A stretch of DNA of 64,000 nucleotides from NCBI GenBank assembly GCA_028865095.1, contig JAGWLA010000004.1, forward strand, positions 8,428 through 72,427. The letters are read 5' to 3'. Below are positions 4,306 through 63,989 of the stretch, one piece after another (position 1 is the stretch's first letter; every line of letters begins with the position of its first letter). Source of the DNA: Patescibacteria group bacterium. GTDB taxonomy: Bacteria > Patescibacteriota > Minisyncoccia > Phycocordibacterales > PALSA-1337. The notes below the pieces were generated by a model. The model was not told where the DNA came from and made no database searches. It saw only the letters and a list, made by a program, of their open reading frames with translations. Position numbers and translations under genes: made by a program.

Positions 4306-4914
4306 ATGAAAGCTGTGATATATGACTTCGACGGGACGCTCTGCGACAGCATCCCATGCTCATTCCAAGCGACGCAAAGCGTCTTTAAGGCGTTCGGGAT
4401 CGACCCGCCTCCTTTCGAGACGTACGTCAGGGCGTTCGGACCGCCGTATGCTCAGTACTATTGGGAGAACGGCCTTCCGACGAGCGTATCTGAAAGCGAG
4501 ATCTGGGAGGCATATCTTCCCAGAGCGCGGCTCGACCAAGCCCGGCTCTTCCCCGATGCCATCAGGTCGGTCGGCCTTCAGAAGAGGGCGGGATATCGTC
4601 TCGGCCTCGTCACCGGCAGGGCCGCCATGAAATTGCGGCGGGCGATGAACAGGCACGATTGCTGGCATCTCTTCGATTGCATCGTGTCGGAAACCACGCC
4701 GGACAAGACGCGAGCATTCGGTTGCGCATGCGCTGCCCTCGGCATATCGCCCTCCGATGCATACTCTGTCGGCGACCTTGCGAGCGACATGCGCGACAGC
4801 GCCAAGTCGGGCCTCGTGCCGATAGGCATCGTCAGGCACGGGCATGACGTGTCCGATATCCTGTTCGAAGCGGGCGCATCCAGGGTCATCCAGAAGCTTT
4901 CCGAGCTATTGTGA
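4306..4914 (+). CDS. HAD-superfamily hydrolase (phosphatase-like)
   Basis: MKAVIYDFDGTLCDS (HAD motif I DxDGT). AGGAG 8 nt upstream of this ATG; the track start at 4285 would include the RBS. Confidence 0.75.
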   Translation: MKAVIYDFDGTLCDSIPCSFQATQSVFKAFGIDPPPFETYVRAFGPPYAQYYWENGLPTSVSESEIWEAYLPRARLDQARLFPDAIRSVGLQKRAGYRLGLVTGRAAMKLRRAMNRHDCWHLFDCIVSETTPDKTRAFGCACAALGISPSDAYSVGDLASDMRDSAKSGLVPIGIVRHGHDVSDILFEAGASRVIQKLSELL

Positions 4915-4975
4915 CTTCCCAGAGGAGCTTATCGCAGCCCCAGACATCTCCGCCGCCGGATACCCGCGCGGCTTT

Positions 4976-6470: not shown

Positions 6471-7586
6471 TTATAGCACGCCCCCTTCGATGATCCCTCC
6501 GCCGAGGCATTCCCGCCCCGTCTCGTCATATATGACGAGCGATTGGCCCGGCGTCAGCGAATCTTGCGGCGCTTCGAACTCGAACGAGGCGGTCCCTGCC
6601 CCGATCGAGGCCGCCGTCGCCGGCGCGAGCGGGGCTCGATAGCGGGCGCGCGCCCTGAGCTTCCGGCCGGCCTCCGGCGCCCCCGAGATCCAGTTCGTGC
6701 CGGAGACGCGCACGGACAAGGCCCCTCCGGGAAGCGCCCCTCCGGCGTCCTTGGCTGCGACGGTCAGGGTGTTCGCGGCGATGTCCTTGGCGACGACATA
6801 GAGCGGCGCGCCGTCCGGCGTCTTATGCGCCCGGTCGATGTCGAAGCCGTGGCGCTCTCCCATGGTGAAGAAAAGGGCTCCGGGGTGGGTGCCGATCCGC
6901 TGCCCCTTCATGTCGAGGACTGCCCCGGGCCTGGTAGAGGGATCGTCTCCGGCCGCCCGCGCCAGGAACTCCTTCAGGTCCACTTTGCCGATGAAGCAGA
7001 GGCCCTGGCTGTCCTTCTTGGCGGCGTTGGGCAGGCCGAGCTTCCGGGCCAGGGCCCGCACCTCTGGCTTGGGCATGCCGCCGACCGGGAAGAGCGCGTG
7101 GGCGAGGCTGTCGCCTGTCAGCGTCCAGAGGAAGTAGGTCTGGTCCTTGTCCGCGTCCGCGGAGACGAGCAGCCGGCCGCCCTCGGACCGGGCATAATGC
7201 CCGGTGGCGATGAGGCTCGCGCCCTGGGCCGCGGCCCATTCCCGGAAAGCGCCGAACTTCACTTCGCGGTTGCACATGACGTCGGGGTTCGGGGTGCGCC
7301 CGGCGCGATACTCGGCGATCATGCGGTCGATGACGCCCTGCTTGTATTCGGCGGCGAGGTCGGCGGTGAGGAACGGGATGCCGAGATGGGCGGCCGCGCG
7401 CATGGCGTCGAGCCGCTCGTCGCGCCAGGAGCATTCCAGCCACTCGGGCTGCCAGACCTTGATGAAAGCGCCGACGACGTCGTAGCCGGCGCGCTTCAAG
7501 AGGGCCGCGGAGACGGAGCTGTCGACGCCGCCGGACATGCCGACGACGACCCGCGCCCCTTTAGAGATATTTCGACTTGTTGGCAT
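6471..7586 (-). CDS. mnmA: tRNA-specific 2-thiouridylase MnmA
   Basis: VVVGMSGGVDSSV PP-loop, conserved Cys residues, typical length 371 aa. Confidence 0.9.
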   Translation of the reverse strand: MPTSRNISKGARVVVGMSGGVDSSVSAALLKRAGYDVVGAFIKVWQPEWLECSWRDERLDAMRAAAHLGIPFLTADLAAEYKQGVIDRMIAEYRAGRTPNPDVMCNREVKFGAFREWAAAQGASLIATGHYARSEGGRLLVSADADKDQTYFLWTLTGDSLAHALFPVGGMPKPEVRALARKLGLPNAAKKDSQGLCFIGKVDLKEFLARAAGDDPSTRPGAVLDMKGQRIGTHPGALFFTMGERHGFDIDRAHKTPDGAPLYVVAKDIAANTLTVAAKDAGGALPGGALSVRVSGTNWISGAPEAGRKLRARARYRAPLAPATAASIGAGTASFEFEAPQDSLTPGQSLVIYDETGRECLGGGIIEGGVL

Positions 7587-60119: not shown

Positions 60120-61358
<1,239 letters not shown>

Positions 61359-61477
61359 TCGTTATCCGCATAAGCTCAGGCCTTGTCCGATACGACTAAG
61401 CGCGAAGGAGGATGCAGGTAAGACCACTATAAACGATAACGACGAACTTGTCAATTCTTTTGGTGCCGTGACGGGCT

Positions 61478-62101
61478 TTATCGCCTCTTGATGAAGCCGA
61501 CGGCCCACCCGATGAGGGCGAACAGGCCTATGACCGCCAGCGCGCCTGTGATCGCCGCGAGGATCGTCTCATCCCACCCATAGGGCGCGCCGTAGCCGTT
61601 TCCCCAGCCGCTCATCATGCCGTATCCGTTCGCGTGCTCGCCTCCCATCATAGGCCCAAAGCCCGTCGAGCCGGCGAAGGCCGACGCGGATCCGCATCCC
61701 GAGAAGCGCTCGCCCATGGCGACATGCATGCTGTCGTCATATGCCTGGCCATAGCGGCTGACGATATAGCTGTCCATGGCGTCGTGGCCCGATCCCATCA
61801 TAAGGGTCATGGAATATTCTCCGAGCGACTGATAATCGGCCTGCGTCAGGGTCGGACAGCCGATCGTCCCGGCGCGGAGCTTCTGGGCGAGGGCCTGGCC
61901 CGCGGCTTCGGCCGCATCCATGGTCGTCGAGCCCGCGGCAGCGGGAGTGGACGACCCGTAGTAGCTATACATCATGCCGGGACCATAGCCGTTATAATAG
62001 CCGCCCATCATTTGAGCATCTGCGGGCCGTGCCCCCAAAGCTCCTGCGACGGCGATGAACGAAGCGAACAGGGCGAGCATTGCGATCTTTTTCATATGCA
62101 T
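61478..62101 (-). CDS. Secreted Met/Gly/Tyr-rich protein with C-terminal TM anchor (candidate copper-binding protein under CsoR control)
   Basis: Signal-peptide-like N-terminus; repeated MMGGYYNGYGPGMM / GYGMMSGWGNGYG motifs; two Cys; C-terminal hydrophobic anchor + KRR. 51 nt downstream of csoR on the same strand. Confidence 0.6.
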   Translation of the reverse strand: MHMKKIAMLALFASFIAVAGALGARPADAQMMGGYYNGYGPGMMYSYYGSSTPAAAGSTTMDAAEAAGQALAQKLRAGTIGCPTLTQADYQSLGEYSMTLMMGSGHDAMDSYIVSRYGQAYDDSMHVAMGERFSGCGSASAFAGSTGFGPMMGGEHANGYGMMSGWGNGYGAPYGWDETILAAITGALAVIGLFALIGWAVGFIKRR

Positions 62102-62152
62102 GTGCGTATCGATTACGGACCAATGATAATGCGCCTTCGACGGGCGCTGCGG

Positions 62153-62419
62153 TCATCGTTGAGCCAGCTTGTAGACCTTCAATATCTCTTCGGTGGCCTG
62201 CTTTTCGCGGCCATGCTTGATATCGTGGGCTACGTGCGTCTCCAGATGGTTCCGGAGGATGAGGCTGCCGACGCCCGACAAAGCTTCGCGCGCGGCCTCG
62301 ATCTGCGCGATGATGTCGACGCAGTACACCTCCCGTCCGACCATGTCCTGGACGCCTTTGATCTGGCCGGCGATGATGGACAGCCTCCGCGCGGCGCTCT
62401 TCTTGATGTCTGCTTTCAT
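62153..62419 (-). CDS. csoR: CsoR/RcnR-family metal-sensing transcriptional repressor
   Basis: DUF156 fold with the C-H-C metal-ligand pattern (...EVYCVDIIAQ...H...); start at MKADIKKSAARRL; the TTG start in the track would place the operator inside the ORF. Confidence 0.8.
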   Translation of the reverse strand: MKADIKKSAARRLSIIAGQIKGVQDMVGREVYCVDIIAQIEAAREALSGVGSLILRNHLETHVAHDIKHGREKQATEEILKVYKLAQR

Positions 62420-62428
62420 GGCGCTAGT

Positions 62429-62445
62429 ATACCCCCAGGGGGTAT
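62429..62445. promoter_or_regulatory. Predicted CsoR operator: perfect palindrome ATACCCCC-A-GGGGGTAT 10-26 nt upstream of the csoR ATG
   Basis: Matches the GC-rich ATACCC...GGGTAT-type inverted repeat bound by characterised CsoR proteins; read directly from the sequence. Confidence 0.55.
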
Positions 62446-62451
62446 TACAGG

Positions 62452-63033
62452 TCAATTGCTGAACAGCTTCCGCAGCTCAGCCTCTTTCTCCGGAGAGAGC
62501 CTTGCCTCAAGCAGCTTGGGGATCACTTCTTTCTCGGAAAATCGCCCGTCCATCGCCAAACCCAGAAATTCGTCGAATGTCACCGGCTTCAGCGTTATCT
62601 TCTCCCCACCATCCAGATCGAGGCCCCCCGCTTTCTTCAGGCCTTTGGCGATGAAGGTATAGACGACCCAGTCGATCTTGCTCGTCGGGTGCTGGACGTC
62701 CCAAAGCATGAATTCATCGGCCTCATACCCGCTTTCTTCTCGCAGCTCGCGGCGGGCGGCATCCAGGATATCCTCGCCTTCGTCCACTCTGCCGCCGGTA
62801 GCACCGATGAAAGGATCTTTTCCAGGCTGTTCCTGTTCAGTCAAGAGCACTCGGCCATCTGGCAACACCGGAAACACCACGACCGTGTCCGGTCGTTTCA
62901 GCTTCTCGAATGTGGCGATCGTGCCATCGAACATTTTCTGCTCCCACTGATAGACGTCAAAGATGACTCCCTTGAAGACCCGCTTGGCGTTCCCGGGGAT
63001 CGGCTGTTTCGATGGCGGCCGGGGGATGTTCAT
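62452..63033 (-). CDS. Nudix hydrolase (ADP-ribose pyrophosphatase-like)
   Basis: Nudix box GGRVDEGEDILDAARRELREESGY; start at MNIPRPP; the track start at 63120 overlaps the upstream Nudix gene. Confidence 0.75.
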   Translation of the reverse strand: MNIPRPPSKQPIPGNAKRVFKGVIFDVYQWEQKMFDGTIATFEKLKRPDTVVVFPVLPDGRVLLTEQEQPGKDPFIGATGGRVDEGEDILDAARRELREESGYEADEFMLWDVQHPTSKIDWVVYTFIAKGLKKAGGLDLDGGEKITLKPVTFDEFLGLAMDGRFSEKEVIPKLLEARLSPEKEAELRKLFSN

Positions 63034-63106
63034 CGCGGCGCCGCCCATTCGGCATAATGACCCTCTCTTATGAGAAAGAGGCAGGCTGCAGGTTTGGATA
63101 TGTTCC

Positions 63107-63538
63107 TCATATTTTTTCATAGACGCTCCTTTTCAGGTAGCACGCCACCCCCATGGCGCTCGCGTCGAAATGGGGCTGGGGAAGCGCTCGCGGGTCGGCC
63201 CATATCCAGCCCTCGCATTTCTCCGGCTCCATGATCCTCGCTTCGCCGGAATAGTTCCTGACGAGCAGGATCACGCTGACATAATGCTTCCCTTCCTCTT
63301 TGTACGTCTCCAGATTATTAGTCACGGCGATGACTTTCGGGTCGGATATGTCGATACCCGTCTCCTCCTTCATCTCTCTGACGGCACCCTGCTCGAACGT
63401 CTCTCCCATCTCGAGATGGCCGCCCGGTATGGAATATTTCCGGGCATGACTGCCCTTCCGTTTTCCGACGAGGATCTTCCCTTCGTCATTGACGACGATG
63501 ATCCCTAAGCCCACACGAGGATGTCCTTGTTCGTTCAT
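63107..63538 (-). CDS. Nudix hydrolase (MutT-like)
   Basis: Nudix box GGHLEMGETFEQGAVREMKEETG; 143 aa. Confidence 0.8.
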   Translation of the reverse strand: MNEQGHPRVGLGIIVVNDEGKILVGKRKGSHARKYSIPGGHLEMGETFEQGAVREMKEETGIDISDPKVIAVTNNLETYKEEGKHYVSVILLVRNYSGEARIMEPEKCEGWIWADPRALPQPHFDASAMGVACYLKRSVYEKI

Positions 63539-63539
63539 A

Positions 63540-63989
63540 TCAGGCGAATAGGCTGGCCGCGAAGGCGATGGCCAGTATCGTCACCAGGTTCGAAGCGCTG
63601 TCGGAGAAGAATCTCTTCCAGGCCAAGCCGCGATCGCAGCTGCTCCAAAGCATCCCGGTCCCGATCGCCGGCACCGTGAAGCACAGCCAGCTGAAGACGG
63701 CGAAGCCGACGGCCATGAAGAGCGGCAAGCCGTTATGCAGGCTCTCCAGGACGACGAATACGACCCAGAACGATGTGAGGAACGAGAGGCCCAGCTGGGC
63801 AGCGTACATCTTCGGCATCACGGCTTTTCCCGCCTCCATCTTCTGCTTGCGCTCCTCCTCGGTAAGCTTGTCCATGCCGAGGGAGCGCATGTGTATCTTC
63901 CCCATGGGGGTCTTGTCCGAATACCACAAAGTGCCGATGACCGCATATATGACGGCGCCGGCGATGGCTAAAATGATTATAGTGATCAT
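63540..63989 (-). CDS. DUF1761-family membrane protein
   Basis: 149 aa, 4 TM segments, typical DUF1761 size and topology; 1-nt gap to the Nudix gene. Confidence 0.6.
   Translation of the reverse strand: MITIIILAIAGAVIYAVIGTLWYSDKTPMGKIHMRSLGMDKLTEEERKQKMEAGKAVMPKMYAAQLGLSFLTSFWVVFVVLESLHNGLPLFMAVGFAVFSWLCFTVPAIGTGMLWSSCDRGLAWKRFFSDSASNLVTILAIAFAASLFA

Follow-up and report, generated by a model that had tools for sequence, protein, structure and literature searches.

Introduction

The classic operons under CsoR-family repressors, those of Mycobacterium, Bacillus, Streptomyces, and Geobacillus (represented by the structures 2HH7, 4M1P, and 4ADZ), carry a cytoplasmic CopZ chaperone and a CPC-type CopA pump as their cargo, and their repressors bind metal through an x-C-H-C ligand set. 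Here, we describe a locus near the end of a 64-kb stretch of DNA from a Patescibacteria group bacterium (assembly GCA_028865095.1, contig JAGWLA010000004.1; the whole 64,000-nt stretch is referred to as the window), in which a csoR-family gene is followed by a gene, termed X, for a predicted membrane-anchored protein. This locus resembles the classic operons in its repressor family (E 1e-10 to 1e-12), operator type, and apparent autoregulation, but its repressor has x-C-H-H ligands and its cargo is a putatively extracytoplasmic protein of a new family, joined in relatives by a CPH-type CopB pump.

The closest solved relative of the repressor is CsoR of Thermus thermophilus (TTHA1719, 3AAI; E 3.7e-12), with which it shares the Cys-His-His positions, the second-shell Tyr and Glu, the short all-helical PF02583 architecture, and a GC-core palindromic operator. 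However, the window repressor has no counterpart of the N-terminal His5 region of Thermus CsoR, appears to control X (and copB too in relatives) rather than copZ and copA, and has its operator within a promoter that probably yields leaderless mRNA, between the -35 and -10 hexamers. In functional terms, the closest precedent appears to be the CsoR-controlled copBL/copXL locus of Staphylococcus aureus, which encodes a P1B-3 pump together with CopL, a lipoprotein of the cell surface for which binding of extracellular copper has been suggested (PMC10233261). That locus has a CsoR box of the ATACC...GGGTAT type, a CopB-type pump with CPH and His-rich features, and a host without an outer membrane, and CopL, tethered to the cell surface, has been proposed to have the same accessory role as X here, namely to bind copper outside the cell and keep it from being taken up again. 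The patescibacterial loci differ in their gene order, csoR-X-copB, and X is mainly confined to Patescibacteria; moreover, X has no sequence or domain relationship to CopL, as its core matches no Pfam model, and it is predicted to be helical with a C-terminal transmembrane (TM) anchor, whereas CopL is lipid-anchored. A further likeness is to SilE and PcoE, 'molecular sponges' that are secreted, Met/His-rich, partly disordered, and induced alongside efflux systems, and in which HxxM and MxxH helix motifs serve as soft-metal sites, those of SilE binding Ag(I) (PMC5008109, PMC11904771). Unlike SilE and PcoE, which are soluble and entirely unstructured in the absence of metal, X is predicted to be membrane-anchored and to combine Gly/Tyr-rich arms with a stable four-helix core that contains Cys; no homology between them and X is detectable.

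A CsoR-family repressor with an operator inside its own promoter

Our preferred reading, which we regard as reasonably probable, is that csoR and X form a two-gene autoregulated metal-stress operon that is derepressed by copper and whose product X binds or buffers Cu(I) outside the membrane. The regulatory part of this mechanism is highly probable. The elements that carry it are as follows.

62450-62455, minus strand: -35 hexamer TTGACC, overlapping the TGA stop codon (62452-62454) of the upstream NUDIX gene
62429-62445, both strands: CsoR-type operator, a perfect 8-1-8 inverted repeat, ATACCCCC-A-GGGGGTAT
62426-62431, minus strand: -10 hexamer TATACT, ending 6 nt before the csoR ATG
62153-62419, minus strand: csoR-family repressor gene (88 aa), with a PF02583 match
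62096-62152, minus strand: csoR-X spacer, 51-57 nt depending on the start of X, containing ATTATCATT
61478-62101, minus strand: gene X, 207 aa from the first ATG, encoding a putative membrane-anchored extracytoplasmic protein

Read on the minus strand, the order is TTGACC, 18 nt, TATACT, AGCGCC, and ATG, a sigma-70-type promoter with 10 of 12 matches in the promoter scan. The palindrome, ATACCCCCAGGGGGTAT, lies 9 nt upstream of the csoR ATG, fills the spacer between the -35 and -10 hexamers, and overlaps the latter, an arrangement in which a GC-core inverted-repeat operator overlaps the promoter of the operon it would regulate. It is the sole match in the 64 kb when up to three mismatches are allowed, with 0.14 expected by chance. 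The original prediction, that a csoR-family repressor gene is present here and is preceded by a GC-rich inverted repeat of the CsoR type, is borne out by the domain match, by the uniqueness of the repeat in the window, and by its conservation in relatives; the repeat does lie upstream of csoR, but between the -35 and -10 hexamers rather than merely upstream. With only 6 nt between the -10 hexamer and the ATG, csoR is probably transcribed as a leaderless mRNA; the corresponding spacing in relatives is 6-8 nt (L001, L003, L005, L009, L011-L015, L039, L045, and L061). The full layout of -35, box, -10, and ATG before csoR recurs in every close locus and in several that are more distant (L001-L015, L039, L045, and L061), where a TTGAC element likewise precedes the box.

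Across 738 kb of related loci, a relaxed form of the motif, TACCC-N(1-9)-GGGTA, was counted 23 times, and all but one short instance lie directly before csoR, X, or copB. In L007/L008, X lies 1.8 kb from a divergently oriented csoR-copB unit and has a promoter of its own, in which the box ATACCCC-TCC-GGGGTAT (position 4955) separates the -35 from a TATGAT -10. The X gene of L026 is likewise preceded by a box (position 4795), which overlaps a TATAAT -10, and a second box (within 6860-6910) precedes a gene for a small His-rich membrane protein (DUF2933-like) and copB. Because these csoR-unlinked X genes carry CsoR-type boxes of their own, X reads as a regulon member in its own right and not as a passenger, and we consider it very likely that X is a member of a copper regulon.

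The repressor matches PF02583 (metal-sensitive repressor, CsoR/RcnR; also DUF156) over residues 6-83 with an E value of 9.3e-22 and 77.7 bits against a cut-off of 22.8, and its further relatives in the PDB are 4M1P (G. thermodenitrificans CsoR), 2HH7 (M. tuberculosis CsoR), 4ADZ (Streptomyces), and 5FMN. When aligned without gaps to 2HH7, the repressor has C33, H58, and H62 where M. tuberculosis CsoR has C36, H61, and C65, and its second-shell residues Y32 and E78 match Y35 and E81. It is through this second-shell Tyr and Glu that CsoR proteins link the binding of Cu(I) to their release from DNA. The resulting x-C-H-H set, aligned with the C/H/H of 3AAI, places the repressor in the T. thermophilus-type subgroup and departs from the classic Cu(I) fingerprint x-C-H-C (Cys36, His61, and Cys65 of M. 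tuberculosis) in that the third ligand is His. The H-C-H-H pattern of RcnR with its N-terminal His3 is absent, as the N terminus reads MKADIKK and no His precedes residue 58, and the protein scores 37 on the NCBIfam RcnR model, whose cut-off is 138. The signatures of CstR (two reactive Cys) and FrmR (Pro2 and Cys) are absent as well, C33 being the single Cys and residue 2 being Lys; the repressor scores 27.5 on the NCBIfam FrmR model (cut-off 133), and the RicR score is likewise far below its cut-off. Among the X-adjacent csoR genes with readable ligand positions, 16 of 21 are of the C-H-H and 5 of the C-H-C type, and both types stand behind similar GC-core boxes. Because the x-C-H-H set replaces the classic x-C-H-C, copper is the likely but not proven inducer. 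According to a 2024 review, x-C-H-H CsoRs probably sense Cu(I), although their specificity still awaits rigorous proof (PMC11672702).

Neither a second promoter nor a Shine-Dalgarno sequence was found in the csoR-X spacer by the promoter and terminator scan, and the one hairpin that the spacer holds has a 5-bp stem and a poor T tail, no better than in shuffled sequences. An RNA element or terminator at this place was considered and rejected (no Rfam match; fold z-score -0.23). Since the spacer has no second promoter, convincing terminator, or Rfam match, co-transcription of csoR and X is the simplest reading. An A/T-rich ATTATCA(A/T)T-like motif is common to the spacers before X (ATTATCATT in the window, and also L003, L005, L009, L011, and L012) and is possibly a translation or processing signal; a Shine-Dalgarno sequence was not seen in the spacers of those five loci either. 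A long open reading frame (ORF) on the plus strand (61634-62662) was rejected as a high-GC artefact, the minus-strand genes having family support, and recent horizontal acquisition was rejected given a GC content of 0.58-0.61, intermediate between those of the two flanks.

X is a predicted membrane-anchored protein with a conserved four-helix core

The NCBI annotation starts X at the second possible start (MKK at 62095), giving a product of 205 aa (P0001), and X is 100% identical to the 205-aa hypothetical protein KGI69_03030 of a metagenome-assembled genome (MAG) of a Patescibacteria group bacterium. Counted from the first ATG, its parts are as follows.

62015-62101, minus strand: signal peptide, residues 1-29 (...ARPADA, cut, QMM); hydrophobic N terminus, modelled as a helix, with a conserved A-Q-M-M junction
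61922-62014, minus strand: N-terminal arm, residues 30-60; 13% Met, 23% Gly, and 20% Tyr, predicted to be disordered
61676-61921, minus strand: four-helix core, residues 61-142; conserved and confidently modelled
61565-61675, minus strand: C-terminal arm, residues 143-179; Met/Gly-rich, with GPMMGG and GYGMMSG, predicted to be disordered
61481-61564, minus strand: C-terminal TM helix (about residues 180-204) and cytoplasmic KRR tail; modelled helix 176-206, predicted local distance difference test (pLDDT) 85-91

In the full-length AlphaFold2 model, built with a 27-sequence alignment, the pLDDT is 93-97 over core residues 61-130 and below 50 over residues 25-53 and 140-175, and a core-only model reaches a pLDDT of 92.5 and a predicted TM-score (pTM) of 0.83. 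The disordered arms hold MMGGYYNGYGPGMM and the GPMMGG...GYGMMSG motifs, and the core holds the only two Cys of the protein, C82 and C136. As the signal peptide ends in ADA,Q and the C-terminal helix precedes KRR, the arms and core are predicted to lie outside the cell, tethered to the membrane. The expectation of a downstream protein of about 207 aa with a signal peptide, Met/Gly/Tyr-rich stretches, two Cys, and a C-terminal TM helix thus agrees with what is found, and its description as built from repeats fits the Met/Gly-rich arms, but X does not consist only of repeats, since residues 61-142 form a conserved four-helix domain.

A word-indexed search with X retrieved 27 relatives. An exhaustive profile search with the 83-residue core retrieved at least 1100 cluster representatives at E<=1e-3 and 666 at E<=1e-10, the size of the family being counted as clusters at 50% identity. 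Judging from these sequences, it is an unnamed family of almost exclusively patescibacterial proteins, and identity to the window copy averages about 35-45%. Among 170 retrieved members, an N-terminal hydrophobic segment is present in 158, a C-terminal TM segment in 147, and a SHOCT tail after the TM helix in 43; the linker between core and TM helix has a family-wide median of 37 aa with 17% Met and 24% Gly. In 171 core domains, the most strongly conserved residues are H126 (100%), C82 (99%), C136 (98%), H106 (97%), M98 (95%), and M109 (94%), followed by M125 (86%), M101 (85%), and M129 (77%), and G68, L85, G94, Y96, G103, G118, G130, R132, and S134 are also conserved in at least 90%. These yield the signature C-x13-Y-x-M-x2-M-x4-H-x2-M-x15-M-H-x2-M-x2-R-x-S-x-C, represented in X by C82, Y96, M98, M101, H106-x2-M109, M125-H126-x2-M129, R132, S134, and C136. 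The window copy has all invariant and near-invariant positions and the full architecture, and it lacks the optional SHOCT tail. The MxxM, HxxM, and MHxxM patterns formed by the conserved residues sit on the core helices, and as the Met residues have this spacing and almost never become Leu or Ile, the conserved Met and His of the core look like ligands, by analogy with known sites, rather than packing residues. Two relatives have unusual architectures: P0028 carries two X cores in tandem, and in P0072 (533 aa) the core is fused to a large C-terminal His-rich domain that has no Pfam match.

The view that X is unlike known copper protein folds also stands, as X matches neither a Pfam or NCBIfam model of any known extracytoplasmic copper protein nor a solved structure. 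Against Pfam, X has no match at E<=0.1, and 49 family cores have no shared match at E<=1; ten full-length relatives have no match among Pfam and NCBIfam models, and X itself has none in NCBIfam save one chance hit (E 0.022, 14 bits against a cut-off of 241). The Pfam models should cover CopC/PcoC, CusF, CopL/DUF1541, CopM/DUF305, PCuAC, YcnI/DUF1775, CopK, and the cupredoxins. An X-profile search of PDB sequences was empty at E<=10, and Foldseek found no fold match in the PDB (best E 2.0, TM-score <=0.35). Cluster look-ups for 10 diverse members returned no informative names, and no description of the family was found in the literature on CsoR or copper in Patescibacteria, on SHOCT, or on Met-rich copper proteins. 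A silver-induced SHOCT membrane protein of Haloferax (PMC10694973) was considered and cannot be linked to the X family. A tblastn search with a typical X core against 72,556 plasmids gave no match, so that the family does not count among the common mobile resistance genes of cultured bacteria.

X is linked to csoR and to CopB-type ATPase genes in relatives

One genome per GTDB species was scanned, which yielded 112 relatives of X, and the context counts given here refer to the best 80 of these 112 loci (mean 8.2 kb). The 80 loci are almost all from Patescibacteria, namely Parcubacteria groups, Microgenomates, Saccharibacteria, Peregrinibacteria, and WWE3, and a few X loci come from MAGs labelled as Methylomirabilis, Brocadiaceae, or Gammaproteobacteria. 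A csoR gene is present in 22 of the 80 and a P1B ATPase gene in 31, with both in 19 and at least one in 34, whereas the chance expectation for such linkage is about 1-2% (single-copy genes in genomes of about 1 Mb). Among close homologues, the operon runs from csoR through X, a small membrane ORF in some, and a P-type ATPase gene whose product has a heavy-metal-binding domain (HMBD), to an ORF of about 135 aa; csoR-X-copB operons are found in L001-L006, L009-L011, and L013-L015, and X directly abuts copB in many operons. The linked ATPases score best on copper and heavy-metal P1B models, and because they have CPH in TM helix 4, YN and MSxST in the last helices, and His-rich N termini, we take them to be CopB/P1B-3 copper pumps. 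Among the 26 that are readable, 20 are CPH and 6 CPC, and most have His-rich or HMBD N termini.

The linkage in many genomes, together with the separate boxes of unlinked X genes, upholds the claim that csoR controls X. The statement that X takes the place of copZ and copA is accurate for the window, where X is the only gene downstream, but does not extend to relatives, in which a CPH-type P1B-3 ATPase of the CopB kind follows csoR-X. A paralogue of X, P0004, is 55% identical and lies on another contig of the same MAG. Two csoR-X modules are present in a related MAG, REEB144: copB follows the one in L011, and the one in L012 lies at a contig end. We consider it most likely that the locus in the window is a second, pump-less module of the same regulon; the pump must then be encoded elsewhere in the genome, probably beside P0004.

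Other genes also recur beside X. A gene for a DsrE-like protein (PF02635, 108 aa, with a CGTC motif) adjoins X on the same strand in 16 of the 80 loci; such loci include L030, L038, L044, L046, L052, L057, L062, L064, L076, L085, L087, and L090. DUF302 is present in 11 of the 80, DUF2933 and DoxX are also recurrent, and membrane proteins combining DsbD_2 with a cupredoxin domain (Cupredoxin_1) occur in 5. In L009 (6530-8035), DsbD_TM and Redoxin/AhpC-TSA genes lie downstream of csoR-X-copB, with one ICMT/PEMT-like gene between. The DsbD-type neighbours hint at a system that keeps thiols outside the membrane reduced, perhaps including those of X. A neighbour of about 326 aa with a PCCGNSxHFPDCNHGMA motif and no Pfam match is found in nine loci (L017, 3860-4840, and eight others) and may be another uncharacterised metal or thiol protein of the candidate phyla radiation (CPR) bacteria. 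The conserved ORF of about 135 aa after copB (L001, 5136-5540; L003, 7723-8133; L005, 7902-8315) has no Pfam or NCBIfam match, and those of L003 and L005 encode membrane proteins with a GDCPFSAMG...CPQD motif. The small membrane ORFs between X and copB in L005 and L009 are 71-86 aa long.

Neighbouring genes in the window

The csoR and X genes belong to a run of minus-strand genes that fills the last 4 kb of the 64-kb window, the other elements of which are as follows.

63540-63989, minus strand: DUF1761 membrane protein gene, farthest upstream in the run
63107-63538, minus strand: NUDIX hydrolase gene 1
62452-63120, minus strand: NUDIX hydrolase gene 2, directly upstream of csoR, with its TGA stop at 62452-62454
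61426-61454, minus strand: the helicase's own promoter, TTGACA-17-TATAGT (promoter scan, 11 of 12 matches)
60120-61358, minus strand: DEAD-box helicase gene, downstream of X beyond a 120-nt gap

The helicase gene lies outside the csoR-X operon, with its near-consensus promoter directly past the X stop codon as the boundary. The encoded helicase carries about 90 extra residues at its N terminus, rich in Arg, Gly, and His. The tandem NUDIX genes (62452-63538, minus strand) overlap by 14 nt, and the DUF1761 protein has a weak, non-significant match to the Pfam model 'Metal_resist' (E 0.052).

Discussion

In the mechanism that we propose, an apo-CsoR tetramer bound to the 8-1-8 palindrome between the -35 and -10 hexamers would block RNA polymerase, and a rise in cytoplasmic Cu(I) would release it through binding at Cys33/His58'/His62'. 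One transcript, probably leaderless, would then give both CsoR and X. The Sec signal peptide would export X, and its C-terminal helix would tether it to the outer face of the cytoplasmic membrane, where the two flexible Met/Gly-rich arms could capture Cu(I) and the four-helix core could then hold it via His106, His126, Met98, and Met109, possibly with Cys82 and Cys136. There, X would buffer copper expelled by CopB-type ATPases or limit its re-entry into the cell. That X binds Cu(I) directly is a step we favour only slightly.

Several observations weigh against this mechanism. The repressor, as read from its alignment, is without the second Cys of the proven Cu(I) CsoRs, and in vitro the response of T. 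thermophilus CsoR extends to Cu(II), Zn, and Cd (PMC5057107). No P-type ATPase gene, or homologue of any other partner gene, was found in the 64-kb window. Among the 80 loci, 46 have neither csoR nor the ATPase within about 5 kb, and 12 of the 16 loci with the DsrE-like gene have no csoR or P1B ATPase gene nearby; because of these 46 loci, and of the 12 that have a DsrE-like gene instead, the role of the X family may be wider than, or different from, copper. All members of the family come from metagenomes or MAGs, and none is functionally named. C82 and C136 may simply form a disulfide rather than belong to a pre-formed metal site.

It may be that X belongs to a copper regulon and yet binds no metal specifically, acting instead as a sacrificial or protective protein whose Met arms scavenge copper-generated oxidants, or as a structural or surface-layer component that limits permeation. 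Regulon membership by itself is no proof of binding, the disordered arms have a very high Met content, and no recognisable copper-binding domain was found with Pfam; however, conservation is strongest in the folded core and not in the arms, the conserved His, Met, and Cys are typical soft-metal ligands, and Met98 and Met109 are hardly ever Leu or Ile, unlike Met that is purely structural or sacrificial, so that we consider this alternative unlikely. Metal identity is a separate matter, as the regulator could sense Ni/Co, Zn/Cd, or Ag, with X handling that metal. The x-C-H-H set is not x-C-H-C and RcnR has H-C-H-H, the NCBIfam scores for RicR, RcnR, and FrmR all fall far below their cut-offs, 6 of the 26 readable adjacent ATPases are of the CPC type, HxxM motifs bind Ag(I) too, and the multi-metal response of the Thermus protein in vitro (PMC5057107) points the same way. 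Against these stand the absence of an RcnR-like N-terminal His, the presence of Tyr32 and Glu78 of the Cu(I) CsoR second shell, and linked pumps that are mostly of the CPH CopB type, score best on copper ATPase models, and have His-rich N termini. The operator, too, is of the CsoR type and not the TACT-G6-N-AGTA type of RcnR, and a metal other than copper is in our judgement quite unlikely.

X might also be a transmembrane sensor or regulator that reports extracytoplasmic metal to the cytoplasm or to the pump, as it is a single-pass membrane protein that directly abuts copB in many operons and 43 of 170 relatives have a cytoplasmic SHOCT tail. This is improbable: the window copy has only KRR beyond the membrane helix and therefore lacks a cytoplasmic signalling domain, SHOCT is not known to have signalling activity, and CsoR already accounts for the regulation. 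The recurrence of DsrE-like, DUF302, and DoxX genes beside X, and the existence of persulfide and formaldehyde sensors in the CsoR family (PMC8643695 and PMC10318464), could instead suggest that the module answers reactive sulfur species or another non-metal signal, as CstR and FrmR do, and that X handles the corresponding stress. However, the repressor is without the Pro2 of FrmR, and its single Cys, C33, argues against a CstR-like sensor, since the CstR-type Cys-Cys persulfide or tetrasulfide link is impossible within the usual pair; both metal-ligand His are kept in 16 of 21 readable X-linked csoR genes (the other 5 being C-H-C), and the P1B ATPase is the commonest neighbour of X. A non-metal signal thus seems highly improbable to us. 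The copper-derepressed csoR-X operon, with X as a buffer for Cu(I) outside the membrane, remains the reading that we prefer.

The CPR, or Patescibacteria, make up a large share of bacterial diversity, and of metal handling in these organisms almost nothing is known. The regulatory half of the locus is of an ordinary, known kind, albeit of the less-studied x-C-H-H type, and what is new is the cargo, drawn from a large, undescribed, CPR-centred family. Conserved operons and operators tie this unannotated family to CsoR and CopB and make it a candidate for a new copper-binding fold. As x-C-H-H is the commoner variant among the sampled X-linked csoR genes (16 of 21 readable), these loci also offer many natural sequences for the study of metal selectivity within this subgroup. 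The family merits a domain model and a name, with which thousands of 'hypothetical proteins' could be annotated. More tentatively, and as a proposal that we rate somewhat short of even, the X family may be the main extracytoplasmic copper-handling protein of Patescibacteria, an undescribed four-helix Cys2-His2-Met fold with Met/Gly 'fishing-line' arms that would serve as the outside acceptor or buffer for CopB-type pumps. If this is true, the family would fill the role that CopL, CusF, or PcoE/SilE has in other bacteria, and the outside receiver of Cu(I) from P1B-3 pumps in cells without an outer membrane would be identified.

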